A stretch of DNA of 63,963 nt, the filler included, from Thelocarpon superellum (Eukaryota): the NCBI GenBank assembly GCA_026025795.1. It is 9 parts of 9 records of this genome, joined end to end, with 100 filler letters (N's around TTAATTAATTAA, not from the genome) between each part and the next. Parts side by side here need not be neighbours in the genome. Positions count along the whole stretch, not along the records: positions 36,568 to 43,630 come from JAPEUG010000645.1; 8 more parts are not named here. The stretch is one strand, 5' to 3'. Shown piece by piece: positions 7,326-40,590 of the stretch. Made by a program: the position numbers and the translations under genes. Position 1 is the stretch's first letter. Every line of letters begins with the position of its first letter. Under the pieces are notes generated by a model. That model was not told the origin of the DNA. It ran no database searches and was given only the letters and a program-made list of their open reading frames with translations.

Positions 7326-7425
7326 NNNNNNNNNNNNNNNNNNNNNNNNNNNNNNNNNNNNNNNNNNNNTTAATTAATTAANNNNNNNNNNNNNNNNNNN
7401 NNNNNNNNNNNNNNNNNNNNNNNNN
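7326..7425. other. Assembly spacer (100 nt of N with a TTAATTAATTAA linker). Identical spacers at 14729-14828, 22011-22110, 29280-29379, 36468-36567, 43631-43730, 50793-50892 and 57954-58053
   Basis: Seen directly; the linker has stop codons in all six frames. Confidence 0.98.
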
Positions 7426-7883: not shown

Positions 7884-8624
7884 GTAGACTAGTGTCCACC
7901 AGTGTTCGGCGCGTAGGTTAGGTCATCATCACGCCAACTGCCAGATGTTACCGGACTAGGCTGCCTGACGCCCGGAGATTCGGCAGGCGTGCAGGACCAC
8001 GCCGACAGACGCCGGAAATAGTACGAATGCTGGATCATCTCCTGGACTAGATAATCAGCCTCAGGTTAGATGAAGAGCGTGTGACGGGTGACCTAGATAT
8101 GATACTTTGTAGAGGTACTCATGAGGCGCCTCATGGAGCTGTGATGTAAGTTGCGTAGCCGAGTCTTCTGTCGACGATCCACGATGCCGAGACGTTCGGA
8201 GAGTAAGACTGCACGGCCGGGTGTGGATGCATTCATCAACCATCATCATATGTGTATTCCTCGCTACCCTGCCTCTTGATCCGACCCAAGCTTTACTGTC
8301 CTGCTCCATCTCCGTAGGCGTCCATTGCCCAGCGCAATCGTCCATCTCGAACTTCGTGATGCCAGCCAGCACCACCTCATGAGGGGCAGCGATCCTTCTC
8401 ACCTCTCGTGACCGGCAGCCTCTTCGAGTAAAAGAAGACGTTTATACCTCTCAACGTGACGTAAGGTGCGCTCGATATGACGACGTTGGCCCCACAATCT
8501 TCGATGGCTGACATGTCCAGCAGGCGCGCGGACGAGAGCCACCAGAATCGATCGACTGATCCACATCCATCGACATCGCGTTAGCCCTCAGAACTTCCCG
8601 GATATTGAGCGGCTCCTTCCTGAG

Positions 8625-11166
8625 ATGCCGCCGCCCGCCAATCCCCGGAAGCGTGCTGCGCCCGGCACGTCTCCTGCCCAACCGGCACCGCCACAACCGC
8701 CACAACCGGCATCATCCATGGCCTTCTCTACCGCGTCCCCACAATTGACCAACGATCAATTTCTACGATGGGGCCAAGTCGGAGATGCGTCGATGCCCGC
8801 CGACGCGACCCTCGACGCAAGCGGGAACGTGTACGATATGGGATCGGCGGGCGTGGATGGTTCCTTCCAGACGCCCCTGGACCCGCAGGCATCGCAACCG
8901 GCCACGTCTACTCAGCTTGCCCGCCGTGGCGTCGGTCAGCAGCTGGTGGCCCGCGGCGCACGGGGCTTGCCGGGAGGGCCCGACGACCCCTGGGCGGACC
9001 TGAGCGACAACATGCAGCTGGACCTGCGCGGCAATGAGTACGAGAACGACGAGGAGGAATTGGAGCAGCGAGCCCAGATAGCGAAACGGGAGGCCTTGGC
9101 CAAGCGAAAGCAAATTCCACCCTTTGTTCAGAAATTGAGCAGGTTCGTCTCCGGCGGTACTCCGTGAGACGAAGAGATCTTATATCGTGACTGACGAGAG
9201 CGCGGATAGCTTCCTCGACGAATCCCGGAACACCGACCTGATCCGGTGGTCCGACGAAGGAGACTCGTTCATCGTCCTGGACGAGGATGAGTTTGCCAAA
9301 ACCTTGATCCCGGAGCTGTTCAAGCACAACAACTACGCGTCCTTTGTGCGGCAACTTAACATGTACGGCTTCCACAAGAAGGTGGGTCTCTCCGACAACT
9401 CGATGCGAGCGAGCGAACGCAAGAACAAGAGTCCCAGCGAGTACTTCAACCGCTACTTCCGCCGCGGACAGCCGGACTTATTGTGGCTCATCAACAAGCC
9501 CAAGAGCCTGAAGCCGTCGGGCGCGAATCCTGCCGAGGAGGTGCAGAGTCCGCAGCTCGAGAGCGGTCCAGCCGGACGTGGAGGGGTTAAGGCGGGGGTA
9601 AAGCGAGCAGGCCCTGGTGCCACGGAGGGTATCGGTAGTGGCGGGGAGGGGGCACATGGGAACGCGGTGCATTCGGACCAAGCGCTGGCCGATGTGAGAG
9701 AGCAGCTGCAAGCCATCCAGCAACAGCAACGGGTCATCTCCGGAGCCATCAACCGGCTACGCAAGGACCAGAGCCAGATCTACGAGCAGGCAGTGGCCTT
9801 TCAAACGCTGCACGATCGACATGAGAGCTCGATCAACGCCATCCTGACCTTCCTCGCCACGGTCTACAATCGCAGCCTGGAAGGGCACGGGGCACAAGAC
9901 TTTGCCAAGTCTTTCAGCAACGCGATTCCGCAAGACGCACAAGGCCCGAGGAACGTGGTCGATGTCGGCGATCTGGGAGGAGCGGACGTGAATGCGATGG
10001 CGCGGTACCGGCGCCCGCCCTTGCTGCTCGGAGCGCCACCGGCGGGGTCGGATGCCACGTCGCGTGTGCGCGTGGCGACGGAGTCTCCCTTGGGACCCAG
10101 TCCTATGCCCACTCCCCGTGCGTACGGAGATTCCACGTTCCGACCAGCGCAAGGCCAGGTCAGCACGGTGGAAGACGTCTCCGCTCCGTCTCCTCAAGTG
10201 ACGATGGACGGTGATGCACAAGATACGCCGCAACAGGATATCCTGTCGATGATCAACTCTGCCAATGCCAGCAGCAAGCAGAACGGACAACAAACTGGAC
10301 AGCTCGATTTTCCCGCGGCGCTGACGCATTACCAGAATGCCAACGGTAATTCGCCGCTCACGCCGAAGCAGCGCAACGATATGCTCAACATGATGGCACG
10401 AGACACCACGTCTAGCGATCCAAGCGGCAGCGAAGGCCAGAGCGCGAGCAACGCGCTCACCTCTCCCAACCCCACCCCGTCCTTCTTGGACCTGGCCCAG
10501 CTCAACGACCGAAACAAGGAGCTGGAACGACTGGTACGGATGCAAGCGGAGCAGAACGCCAACATGCAGAACCTGGCCAATCTGATCCAGCCGCTCAGTC
10601 CGTCGGGGCCGATCCCGGGACTTCCCGAGGGCGGCCTGTTCGACCCCAATCAAGGCCTGCTGGAGACGTCCAGCACGAGCGCGCTGGACCTCGACCAGAT
10701 CTTCAACAGCGGCGACTACTTCAACGCTGGCAGCGGCTCGGGCACCAACGCGGACGGCATGAACTTTGACGCCAACAATCTCGACGGAGAGCAGTTCGAC
10801 TTTGGCGACGACATGAACGACCCGACGTCGAGCATGTTTGGTCTGGACGGCAGCAACGACAAGGACGGCCTCTCGAGCAACAACCTGACTCTCGATCCAG
10901 CCTCGTCTTCCGGTGGAGGCGGCCGTATCATTGGCCAGGTGACCAGCAGCGAGGACGCGAGCCCAGCCAACACCAACACTGCGGACGACGAGGGATGGAG
11001 TGGGATGGGCATCAAACGGGAGGATGACGGAGAGGGGGAGGATGGTCGTGGTGAGGGGACCGACCAGGGGACCGGAGAGCAGGGAGAGGAGCAGGAATCA
11101 GAGGCAGTGAGGGGAGGCATCGCGTCCCCAACGAAACGGCGACGAAAAGGGGCCCGTGGTGATTAG
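8625..11166 (+). CDS. HSF1: Heat shock transcription factor (HSF DNA-binding domain)
   Basis: KQIPPFVQKLS / intron 9143-9209 / FLDESRNTDLIRWS..FKHNNYASFVRQLNMYGFHK, followed by a coiled-coil HR-A/B region. No receiver domain, so not Skn7. Confidence 0.9.
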
Positions 11167-14728: not shown

Positions 14729-14828
14729 NNNNNNNNNNNNNNNNNNNNNNNNNNNNNNNNNNNNNNNNNNNNTTAATTAATTAANNNNNNNNNNNNNNNN
14801 NNNNNNNNNNNNNNNNNNNNNNNNNNNN

Positions 14829-32478: not shown

Positions 32479-35400
32479 GGTGATGAGAAGAGCGCTGCGC
32501 TCCACGACGTCGAAGGGGATGTTTTGGAGGGAGAGGCGAGGTAGGACGAGGTAGGGGAGGGAGCCAAGCCAAGACCCTCCGCTGGGGGAGGTGCAACACG
32601 CTCGGGCTGGGTGGAGGAGAGACCGACGACGAGGCTCGAGAAACCTTCGGCCTATGGGACGACGGCGGTGGTCGAGGGCAGGGTGCCCGCGGGGGAGCGT
32701 GGGCGCGTTGGGTCGTGGCGCAGATGCCCGCAACTGCAAAGCCGAGGAGTATGGGGGAATGCTTGCTTTTTTGTACGGGAGGTTGAGCGTCCAGCCAGTA
32801 GCGGATTCTCGGAATAGATGCCGAGTTGTGTGGAGGCGGATTGGTAGGTGAGCGCGAGGGGCGACCGATTCGGTTCGGCGTGTACGGACGGCGTGTGACC
32901 GACCCCGAGCGGTGATTAGCTGATGCCGACGCCACCCTGTCAGCGAGCAGGTTCCTGTCGCTTTCCCCAGGTTCCACGGTCGCACCGTCGCTCGGTCGCT
33001 TGGGCCGGCGGACAAGGTGAGGGCCTTGGATGACGAGTGCCGAGTCTGGAGGAGGGGCAAAGACGGCCTCGACAGCACCCGAATGGAGGGGAGAGGAGGG
33101 AAAGGAAGAGCCCGGACGATCGTGGCGGAAGACACAGCGGGCGTGGTGCCCTTGGTCAAACCCAAGTCATCCCACGGCGACACCGCAAGTGCCGGACGGG
33201 GGGAGGGGCGTCGCAAAGAAATTATGGCGAGCGCCGTGGCCCATCGTCAAGGTTGAGACTGAGGCTAATGGCTACGGCTCCGGCTACGGCTACTCGTACA
33301 GAATTCTGCAGCTTCACTGCACCAGCGCTGCGCATCGCGGGCGCGGGCGCGGGCGCGGGCGCCAACGCTCTCTCGCTTGAAGAAATGGATGGGGGGCAGG
33401 CGCTGGCACTCGGATAGGGTCAGGCCGAGTGAGGGCCCGCGAGCAGCCCGCGACGATGGCCGCGACCGCAGAACTGCCCGTTAGACGAGGCTAGAAAATT
33501 AGGAGAAGCACCCCAACGCAACGGCGGCCGCCGCACGCTGGCGGACTACAGGCCCCCAAGCTATCGCCGTGGCCGGCGCGCCGCTCTCCTTTTGACCCTT
33601 CAAGGAGCAGATCGGCGTGCGCTCGTAAGGCGAAATCTCAGGGATTGGCGTAGCGGACGAGTCACTGGTACCGGTCCTGCACCTGCTGATCCGGTACACC
33701 TTCTCCGACGAACGGGGGGGACCCGATCCGTTGGCGCCTGTCTTTATGGTACTGGTGCGGTGGGTATGGAGGGCACCATCGTATGGTGGGATGGGTGGGA
33801 GTGGCCGGTCGGCTCTTTTCCGACAGGATCGCATCGCGACCGGCCGTGCAGCTGCTTGGAACCTGTTTGCGAACTGTCGAGATCCGCTGGGTCAGCGACT
33901 TGACCCTCAGCGAGGCCGTCTTCGGTAGACCAGACTGAACCAAATAGGCTCAGCGCCACTTACCAGCCTGCAAGGTCGCCTTTGTGAAATGTTCCAGTCG
34001 CGACCATCGGAGATATTACAACGCCAGCGCCAACGCCAGCACCATCGCCAATGACGTTTCGTTTGCCAGCTGCATTCGCGCGCGCGCGCTCTCGGAAACA
34101 GCGGTCCAACGCATGGCAGGGCATGCTGTTTGCCTGAGGCAGCACGAGGCGAGGGAATACTCACCCTCGCATCGCGAACCACAAGTGCCCCGCGTCAACG
34201 AGTGAGCGCGCGTCCCGCACTGAGCGCGATCGCGGGGTGATGCGAGGACCTAAGCGGGAGACCACGAGCATCGGCTAATTGGCGTGTGAGCGCGCGATGT
34301 GGTCGGTGAGGGAATAACATGGGTGGATTGGAGGGTCTGGCTGGTGGGGTCGTGGTGGCGGCAGTGTGGTAAGATGTTCAAGGCAAAGGACGGCGGACGG
34401 GGACGCATTCGCCAATGAGCCAATGGGCCCGCGGGAGGCAATCGAGATACGCACCGCACGAGGCTCCTTATCCTCCGGTGTACGGTCGACGAGACCAAAG
34501 CCAGCCCAGTCCGCAAAGCTACTGTCGCGTTCGGCAGGAGATCCCGACGCCGAGACCGCGATTCCAGGACCGTCCAGGGCTTGTCCCAGATCCTGAGTGA
34601 GATGCAAGATTCGATGACGTTGATATGCCAGATGGTGAACCGGTCGCAGCGTCCAGGTGGAGTGACATGACTACGACGGCCGTTGACAATAGCCGCTTGC
34701 AACGACCGCGTCGATCGACGTTTCATGCCGGTGAAACGACGCGGCGATGGATCAACCCCCAGGGTCCTCCATCAGCCCCGTCTCGACAATAACGGCGTCA
34801 TGATTGCCAGCGACGGTCGCTTGCGCCTGCGCAAGGAAGCTAGAGGCCAGGAAGGCTTGAGAGTTCGTACTTGCAATCTCGCCTCCGTCGTACAGACGTC
34901 TCTTTACGTTGGAGTTTGGACGGCCACTGCCGAGGAAAGGGTGGTACGCAGTTTACGAGTAGCATGACCGAGTTGTGGAGTTCCAGAGTCCATAGCCCGC
35001 GTTCGACCGAGAGGGACCCTTGCGCCTAGGGTAGCTAATATCTGACCGGATAACCGGCCAGCTTTGGTATGACCATACCATGGTTGGCATGACACGACAC
35101 GATTCAGGGTGAGCAATTCGTCAGCCGGATAGGTCGGGCCAGGAGGTGATGCCCATACCAGAGGCAGGGTCGAGGGATAGCGTCTTCGGCGGACCCGGCC
35201 CACTCACCAGCTCACCCACGACGAGTCCATCGTCCGATGGACTCGTGTCACAACTAGCGGGTGGTGTGGAAGTGGCTGTCTGCACTCGCACACCATTGCG
35301 GTGGGGGTTAGCCACGGAGCGACCGGAGCGAGAGAAAGGTAACTGATCCACATCACTGCATCATGTGGGTGAGATGACGAGGGGCCCACGGACCATCCCA

Positions 35401-39048: not shown

Positions 39049-40590
39049 TTAAGCTGCGCATGGTCAGTGCGATTTTACCAAAGGTACATGTGTACCACAC
39101 TCACCTGTCGTAGGCGTCTTGTACGTGCCAGAGGTCGACTTAGGACCCGCCTGGGGCGCCGTGGGAAAGTCAGAGGCCTTGTAGGAGCCAGAAGTGGTGG
39201 AGCGAGTGGCCGTGGATGGAGCGACGTTGGCGCTGGGAGACACGTTACGCTGTCGAACTGATCCGAGGTAGTCCTGAGCCTTGGAGCTGTAATCGCCCGC
39301 GTACGACTTGATCGTCTCCGACGCCTGTGCCGTGTGCTGGTTGGCCAGATCCTTGACCTGGCTCGCCTGCTGATTGATCACGTCCGTGGCACTCTGGATC
39401 TGTGCGTCAATCGCCTCCTTGTTGTTGATGTAGACAAAGGGCGTGATGTAGAGCAACGACGCTGCGATCAAGGCTAGTCCCCAGAAAGGAACGATCTTGA
39501 TGAGGAAGTACGAGGTCAAAGCGGCGAAGAAAGCCTGTCGCGGTTAGCATGTCACCGTCGTACGCATCACCAGAAGACCCTACCGTCACCGTAGCGTAGA
39601 TGTTCTCGACGAAGAGAATCCGTTGAAACTCAATCACAAAGAAGTTCAAGAGCTCGTGGATGTCCTCCAACACCTGGTCGACGGTCTCCTTGGGAAGGGT
39701 GTAGTACTTGCGAGGTCGCATCTGGCTGGCGAACCCGCTCGAGAAGAGCACCTTGCCGATGATTTCGGCCGTGGCCGTGGCTACGCCTGGTCAGGACTCA
39801 CTTCCGATCCAGGATGAGAGATCACTCACCTCCGAGGGTAAGGTAGAGGAGCTTGCAGGCATAGTGGACCACGGGAACGTAACGAGTCGCAAAGATCAAG
39901 GCCACGGTGGAGACAAAGGCGATGGCCGTCACTCTCGGGTTCTCCCACTAGAGCCGGTCAACCTCCGGGTTCCATCGGCAGCGAGCACGAGATGCTTACA
40001 CTCAGGATGTTGTAGAACATGGAGTGGTAGTCTATCGACCCAGGTCAGCACTCGCCACCGCTCGGATCCACGTCGACGTACGAGTGAGTGGCTGTCCGTT
40101 GGCGGCGGTGTGCGCGGGCTGGACACGAGAGTTGGCTACGTTCTGGAACTCATTCGCCGTGTTGGAATATTCCTGCTTGACAGTCTGGCCCACGGGACCT
40201 TGGAGGTGTGAGCCAAGCATGTTCAGGTGGGGATTAGGATCATGACTGTCGAGGGGTCAGCGAGAGTCGAGTCGAGTCGAGTCGAAGGCGGTAAGACGGA
40301 TGACACCTACCCTACCGTTGCTGACGGTTTCCTTGACATTTTGGGTGAGCGGGTGGTTCTGCACACCGTTCAAGGCCGACTGGGCACCTGCACACGATAT
40401 GAGCCAGCTCGATCATTGGCTGAGGTCTTCAGAACCACTGCCGCACAAGTCCATCAGCTAACAGACCCTTCGGAAGACCCTGGTCCGGATGACCTACCTC
40501 ACTGTTCGCCAGGCTGCCCTTGGGATTGGACTGCGTCGCAGGATAGTCCACTCCGTCCATCGGAGGGTTGTTAGGGTACGCCGACGTCAT
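39049..40590 (-). CDS. Reticulon-like protein (Rtn1/Cwl1 type), 8 exons; first two intervening sequences are stwintrons
   Basis: Exons 40590-40503, 40387-40316, 40198-40082, 40031-40000, 39947-, and onward. Translation includes HYHSMFYNILSWENPRVT and LNFFVIEFQRILFVEN..YFLIKIVPFWGL..YINNKEAID. The last exon has only 5 coding nt (39053-39049). Confidence 0.88.

Follow-up and report, generated by a model that had tools for sequence, protein, structure and literature searches.

The minus strand of the window, by which we mean the whole 63,963-nucleotide stretch of Thelocarpon superellum DNA that was analysed, carries a reticulon-like gene whose coding sequence starts at the ATG at 40590 (Table 1). 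When two long intervening sequences, IVS1 and IVS2, are excised whole together with five further introns, the result is an open reading frame of 352 amino acids that is identical over its full length to the database protein P0001, which its source names a hypothetical protein from a Thelocarpon superellum MAG. The 3' end of the coding sequence, 3 nt plus the stop after intron 7, is predicted and was taken from the model behind P0001. The product contains a match to PF02453 (Reticulon) at residues 99-256 (E 2.6e-33, 115.6 bits versus a gathering cut-off of 31.8); the earlier note on this DNA had called the gene a reticulon gene. The next named relatives are proteins of Toensbergia leucococca and Imshaugia aleurites (Lecanoromycetes), with 55-56% identity in the C-terminal 143 amino acids, and Thelocarpon superellum itself is classified at NCBI in Thelocarpales, leotiomyceta incertae sedis. 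Based on these nearest named proteins and on the structures held in common at positions 1 and 2, we infer that the gene is probably the rtnA orthologue. The N-terminal region of the reticulon-like protein has low conservation overall in an alignment of relatives, and low conservation of this region of RtnA is also reported by Kavalecz et al. 2019 (Sci Rep 9:9940, PMC6616335).

Table 1. Features of the reticulon-like gene, with positions counted along the window; a hyphen within a motif marks the point where one donor abuts the next
Feature	Positions	Strand	Remarks
Reticulon-like gene, candidate rtnA orthologue	39051..40590	-	gene model, 8 coding segments, 352-aa product
Exon I, coding part, 88 nt, ends phase 1	40503..40590	-	
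IVS1, 115 nt, candidate [D5,6] stwintron, rtnA position 1, phase 1	40388..40502	-	starts GTGAG-GTAGGT
IVS1 internal intron, 60 nt	40438..40497	-	donor GTAGGT, branch GCTGAT, 12 nt, CAG, then T
IVS1 external intron, 3' part	40388..40437	-	with 40502-40498 makes a 55-nt unit, GTGAG+T .. GCTCAT .. CAG
Exon II, 72 nt, flanked by phase-1 intervening sequences	40316..40387	-	encodes conserved NHP.TQNVK segment
IVS2, 117 nt, candidate second [D5,6] stwintron, rtnA position 2, phase 1	40199..40315	-	starts GTAGG-GTAGGT
IVS2 internal intron, 65 nt	40246..40310	-	donor GTAGGT, branch GCTGAC, acceptor CAG, then T
IVS2 external intron, 3' part	40199..40245	-	with 40315-40311 makes a 52-nt unit, GTAGG+T .. 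GCTCAC .. AAG
Intron 6, 49 nt, ordinary intron, internal control	39535..39583	-	donor GTAGGG; RNA contigs

All of the coordinates and motifs that the earlier note had given for IVS1, exon II and IVS2 were reproduced on the minus strand. IVS1 and IVS2 are each built like a [D5,6] stwintron, as had been claimed, and they lie at the two positions known for stwintrons in rtnA orthologues. In each, an internal U2-type intron interrupts the donor of an external intron between its nucleotides 5 and 6. Every unit is at least 42 nt long and has a branch element that is closer to the acceptor than to the donor and at least 4 nt away, as expected of a viable intron. The units measure 60, 55, 65 and 52 nt, and their branch-to-acceptor spacers, counted manually, measure 12, 8, 7 and 6 nt. 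The remaining five introns measure 50, 52, 49, 49 and 51 nt, so IVS1 and IVS2 each have about the length of two normal introns; exons IV-VI are 32, 118 and 197 nt. The reading frame is restored only by complete removal of each intervening sequence. By manual reading, taking out the internal unit alone leads to an early in-frame stop, and pairing the 5'-most donor with the internal acceptor also gives a frame with an early stop. Two repeats were noted within IVS2: it opens with the 5-nt GTAGG repeated perfectly in tandem, and a 5-nt tandem repeat of 4.4 copies lies inside its internal intron at 40264-40285.

A strict search motif for these structures has been published, GTRWGGTRWGH(25,120)DYTRAY(4,24)HAGH(25,120)DYTRAY(4,24)HAG, which derives from the A. 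nidulans consensus and serves to find candidates, not to define the class (PMC6616335). It has no match in the window on either strand. It fails because W (donor +4) is G in both internal donors and in the external donor of IVS2, and because R is C in both external branch elements, which read GCTCAY where the gene's other introns have CTRAY. A relaxed [D5,6] motif, in which W is replaced by N and the external branch element is loosened to YTNAY, fits both intervening sequences and has four matches in the window over both strands, namely IVS1, IVS2, 8461-8584 (+) and 33781-33974 (+). In 200 first-order Markov simulations of the window the relaxed motif was matched 0.5 +/- 0.7 times, and two matches within 300 nt on one strand were seen in none of the 200. 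A chance origin of the pattern formed by IVS1 and IVS2 is excluded.

RNA evidence for the gene comes from two metatranscriptome runs, each with 0.07 of the sampled words. Per run, two 151-nt RNA contigs cover exons 6-7 and span 39454-39777 only, with 40199-40502 outside that span. In both runs one contig skips 49 nt with CT..AC ends on the plus strand, which is the excision of intron 6 as a single unit. These contigs show transcription of the gene as well as one-step use of a donor that has G at both +4 and +6. Therefore, one-step removal from the unsplit donors GTGAGG and GTAGGG is mechanistically possible, and the argument in the earlier note that these two are off-consensus at +6 conflicts with intron 6 of this gene, where GTAGGG is the donor and RNA shows splicing in one step.

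To survey relatives, metagenome contigs were scanned with an alignment of eight RtnA proteins, which gave 80 loci, some cDNA-like (intron-free) and some genomic. Peptide anchors for exons II and III were found in 42 of the 80, and our counts use 43 rows, made up of these 42 and the window, with the 38 anchor-less loci left out. At the phase-1 site of IVS1, 33/43 rows have abutting donors of the form GTNNG-GT, within intervening sequences of 104-140 nt that comprise 29 distinct sequences. Exons I and II are already joined in another 7 rows, which are cDNA-like. In the other rows, locus L030 has a standard-looking intron at this site (~67 nt by manual count), the second donor-like hexamer of L056 lies one base further along, and the IVS1 of L040 is cut by the end of its contig. 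GTTAG and GTCAG external donors also occur among the relatives. An earlier scan found one abutting-donor motif upstream of a THYHS-type anchor in 11 of the 38 anchor-less loci (L016, L025, L026, L055, L059, L060, L062, L063, L069, L074 and L075), and a full two-unit parse was obtained for three of these 11 (L025, L069 and L074).

The second position is more variable in occupancy, with IVS2 absent from 15/43 rows (6 cDNA-like rows and 9 genomic rows in which exons II and III are fused) and present in 28/43, which represent 26 distinct sequences. These fall into two length classes. Each of the 12 distinct long sequences (101-123 nt, the 117 nt of the window included) starts GTNNG-GT, versus none of the 14 short ones (48-63 nt), or none of 13 if locus L013 is left out; for 12 of 12 versus none of 14, Fisher p = 1e-7. 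A branch-like element followed by AG lies near the middle of all 12 long sequences, and a central branch/acceptor pair is found in the IVS1 of relatives as well. Conservation in orthologues had been put forward in the earlier note as a check, and it holds for the abutting donors and for the central branch/acceptor pair, but not for the T after the internal acceptor, since at IVS2 a manual reading of 10 lineages gave T in 4, G in 3, C in 2 and A in 1. Exon II is 72 nt long in 9 and 60 nt long in 2 of the 11 listed relatives that have IVS2. The CTCAC element near the 3' end of IVS2 is also present in L042, L047, L050 and L079.

One of the short sequences deserves separate description. We made a quick protein tree from the metagenome contigs and the window (36 distinct rows, 245 columns), and one clade with an SH-aLRT of 97 holds 7 genomic rows, all with a long IVS2, and 5 cDNA-like rows, one of which is L013. 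This cDNA-like contig is without IVS1 and all downstream introns and retains at IVS2 a 48-nt unit beginning GTGAG+A. When it is aligned with its neighbour L064, the gap is exactly the internal intron of L064. L013 is thus likely to be a transcript caught after the first of two reactions, judging from this alignment, and could alternatively be a transcript with a retained ordinary intron, as it is known from its contig alone.

The anatomy, the gene model and the conservation of both positions in relatives are all directly observed, and from them we infer a two-step route in Thelocarpon superellum. We consider it probable that IVS1 and IVS2 are the two [D5,6] stwintrons known for rtnA, each cleared by two U2 reactions with the internal one first. 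The spliceosome would pair the nearest usable splice sites, as in intron definition, and the internal unit would go first because the internal 3' site is the nearest usable one to the paired donors. Going by U1 pairing in general, the outer donors should be no stronger in binding U1 than the internal ones, which follow AG or GG and have T at +6. Removal of the internal 60- or 65-nt intron through its GTAGGT donor, CTGAY branch site and CAG acceptor would then join GTGAG or GTAGG to a T and so rebuild a 55- or 52-nt external intron, which another standard U2 reaction would remove. With two reactions for each stwintron the total would be four, the number stated in the earlier note, which had called all four ordered; the order would be obligatory only within each stwintron, internal before external, and none would be imposed between IVS1 and IVS2.

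We think it unlikely, however, rather than implausible, that each intervening sequence is mainly removed in one step, as a long ordinary intron of 115 or 117 nt that runs from the 5'-most donor to the 3'-most branch site and acceptor, which would leave the internal sites as relics or as minor alternatives. Intron 6 makes clear that G at +6 works in this gene, the external branch site and acceptor are identical in the two models, and the gene model of P0001 has both intervening sequences as single introns. The failure of the strict motif and the external GCTCAY elements, which are not CTRAY, count against two steps as well, and an abutting-donor sequence in Lipomyces starkeyi is excised either way (PMC7138796). 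Against this stand the lengths of all the other introns of the gene (49-52 nt) and the internal CTGAY..CAG pairs, which are closer to the branch-site consensus than the external GCTCAY elements. Relatives keep the central branch/acceptor pair both in IVS1 and in every one of the long IVS2 sequences, and L013 resembles a splicing intermediate of the kind documented in several species (PMC6616335). The same source gives intron definition as predicting use of the nearest 3' site.

Removal of IVS1 and IVS2 in two steps each, which is the reading that we prefer, is compatible with a further outcome, in which the rebuilt donor of IVS1 pairs with the 3' sites of IVS2 so that exon II is skipped, giving an isoform that is 24 amino acids shorter. 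We allow this a limited chance in Thelocarpon superellum. Exon II runs from phase 1 to phase 1 and is a multiple of three, its stwintron-dependent skipping is reported for Aspergillus niger and Neurospora crassa, and some lineages are missing exon II together with IVS2 (PMC6616335). However, the segment is conserved in length and sequence across relatives, which argues that the form including it is functional, and among cDNA-like contigs with both sites fully spliced, 6/6 (L001-L004, L009 and L014) include exon II. It is scarcely credible that the whole structure is a chance resemblance or an artefact of the gene model, with exon II unreal or the region non-coding. The poorly conserved N-terminal region of the protein and the unmatched strict motif could be read that way, but the peptide encoded by exon II is conserved, exons I, II and III are joined at the same junctions in cDNA-like contigs of relatives, relatives have the same structure at the same two positions, and an adjacent motif pair did not arise in the simulations. 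We regard this reading as effectively refuted by the cDNA-like junctions, L013 and the simulations.

The tree also bears on how the second stwintron came about. In a second clade (SH-aLRT 97), which is sister-like to the window, IVS2 is long in L044 and L050, is a 52-nt standard intron in L042, and is missing in L023, L033 and L039. The intron of L042 and the external unit of IVS2 in the window are both 52 nt long, with a CTCAC element and an AAG acceptor. In comparisons with 2000 shuffles each, this external unit was not significantly similar to the L042 intron (p = 0.33), nor was the internal unit of IVS2 (p = 0.30). Among the units of the window, the two internal introns gave p = 0.17, internal 1 and external 2 gave p = 0.57, and the two external introns gave p = 0.034, which is lost after five tests. 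There is no sequence-level sign of homology, duplication or paralogy among the intron units in these comparisons. A perfect 5-nt duplicate of the donor was read manually at IVS1 in 6 distinct relative rows (L018, L035, L037, L050/L051, L079 and L080), and such duplicates are expected often by chance because few donor variants exist.

We find it quite doubtful that the second stwintron re-arose in the Thelocarpon lineage from an ordinary intron of ~52 nt like that of L042, through a GTAGG-GTAGG duplication and new internal 3' sites, and was not inherited from the one in Dothideomycetes and Lecanoromycetes. If true, an independent origin of IVS2 would be a natural replicate of the proposed 'stwintronisation', for which the published model is donor duplication (Ag et al. 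2020, Sci Rep 10:6022, PMC7138796). Ancient origin with repeated loss and repeated origin would both fit the data. The window is unplaced in the protein tree (support 4), which is compatible with either gain or loss of the second internal intron.

The earlier note knew of no description of two such structures in tandem, and it placed donor-disrupted stwintrons at the first intron of reticulon-like genes in Aspergillus, Onygenales and Lipomyces. The tandem arrangement was in fact published by Kavalecz et al. 2019, and the distribution given in the note is too narrow. In that paper 754 orthologues were mined, and the [D5,6] stwintron at position 1 of rtnA is described in almost all sequenced Pezizomycotina, with experimental confirmation in A. 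nidulans, A. niger, Botrytis cinerea, Trichoderma reesei and Neurospora crassa, RT-PCR intermediates in several classes and EST evidence in Tuber melanosporum. A second [D5,6] stwintron at position 2 is predicted there in many Dothideomycetes, Xylonomycetes and Lecanoromycetes, and both stwintrons are demonstrated in the rtnA transcript of Helminthosporium solani (PMC6616335). The present case is one more example of an arrangement that has been in print since 2019. We found no account of this Thelocarpon superellum gene in the literature on stwintrons in Lecanoromycetes or on Thelocarpon introns, a search that was separate from the species table of PMC6616335.

The case itself matters little beyond bookkeeping. 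With it, the range over which the double rtnA stwintron is known gains a lichen-associated lineage filed outside the three published classes. The case also suggests that looser motifs, namely GTAGGT donors and CTCAY external branch elements, are compatible with the double-stwintron architecture, and therefore that screens based on the Aspergillus consensus would miss such cases. The bimodality of IVS2, which is ~50-60 nt long without abutting donors and ~100-125 nt long always with them, independently backs the published model, and so does L013 as one likely natural intermediate.

The gene is most like the rtnA of H. solani, with which it shares the PF02453 family, positions 1 and 2 both in phase 1, nesting between nucleotides 5 and 6 and a short in-frame exon in between. 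In contrast to the H. solani pair, the Thelocarpon superellum pair is predicted from sequence, and the species is filed in Thelocarpales, which is none of the three classes named for the second stwintron. Its GTAGGT donors and GCTCAY external branch elements are looser than the search motif given in PMC6616335. IVS1 occupies the same phase-1 site as the position-1 stwintron of A. nidulans AN5404 and has the same architecture, although its units are 60 and 55 nt long versus 75 and 76 nt in A. nidulans (PMC6616335), and its external donor is GTGAG+T and not GUAAG+U. With Lipomyces starkeyi the gene shares its family and its side-by-side donors, and the GTAGG tandem of IVS2 fits the donor-duplication model, but Lipomyces belongs to another subphylum and has the structure at the first position only (PMC7138796); both one-step and two-step excision are demonstrated there, whereas here the route is read from the DNA. 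The 'dual intervening sequence' in rtnA of Onygenales likewise places four reactions at the 5' end of the gene. There, however, the four U2 reactions clear one nested structure, in which a stwintron and intron 2 are joined by a 'second-order' intron with exon II inside it (PMC6616335), whereas in Thelocarpon superellum there would be two independent stwintrons, with exon II retained as coding sequence between them.

In a cDNA-like metagenome contig from a related locus, L013, all introns are gone except for a 48-nt unit kept at the IVS2 position (L013:277-324). Because this unit is the counterpart of the external half of the stwintron in the nearest genomic relative of L013, this contig is likely a natural splicing intermediate.

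The external intron of IVS1 also has a conserved segment in one clade of related loci, where roughly 12 nt (GCTCGCGTGA and its flanks) form a block that is identical in 6/6 loci in A4, the alignment of the IVS1 region. Outside the block, the same alignment shows that the external intron varies freely within this clade, and a similar string was noted in the external part of IVS2 in two loci, L040 and L056. The block, which is absent from the window, may serve as an element for splicing or for transcription. In the gene studied, the internal intron of IVS2 is longer than that of IVS1, and much of the extra length is due to a perfect 5-nt tandem repeat (see the table).

Locations of the predicted intron, repeat, conserved block and additional motif matches
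Feature	Location	Strand	Details
Seventh intron (predicted)	window 39054-39104	-	51 nt; from the model behind database protein P0001; separated from the stop codon by three coding bases
Tandem repeat	window 40264-40285		5-nt unit, perfect, 4.4 copies; inside the internal intron of IVS2
GCTCGCGTGA block	L042:3985-3996 and aligned places in L039, L033, L023, L044 and L050		alignment A4
Relaxed [D5,6] motif, third match	window 8461-8584	+	124 nt; start GTAAG/GTGCGC
Relaxed [D5,6] motif, fourth match	window 33781-33974	+	194 nt; start GTATG/GTGGGA

At the 3' end of the gene, if the P0001 model did not include the predicted seventh intron, the open reading frame would be 14 residues longer, as counted on its tail. 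The two metatranscriptome runs with contigs on this gene, X1 and X2, come from different studies and years, and they contain identical pairs of 151-nt contigs at 39454-39777 of the window, with a single G>C difference at 39683 common to the contigs of both runs. These runs may represent a single data set that was deposited twice, or may come from the same strain, so they should not be counted as two independent supports. The window contains 704 N in blocks of 44 (for example 7326-7369, 7382-7425 and 14729-14772), and across the whole window none of these blocks is in or near the gene.

The fourth motif match in the window lies in G-rich surroundings with several GTGGG-type repeats, and looks like a chance resemblance. 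At the third match, the upstream frame has a stop and no ATG, so this match, if real, would be a 5'-UTR stwintron. It lies a short way upstream of the first ATG of a long open reading frame (8481-9167, + strand), the end of which, judged by eye, resembles the beginning of a DNA-binding domain of the heat-shock-factor type.

Two related loci have other arrangements at the IVS1 position, which we read in the 200 nt ending at the IVS1 acceptor of each locus. In L056, the first donor is complete and the second donor-like hexamer follows it, starting at +7 rather than at +6. The other locus, L030, has a single intron of standard appearance, about 67 nt long, which is what a loss of the internal intron might leave.
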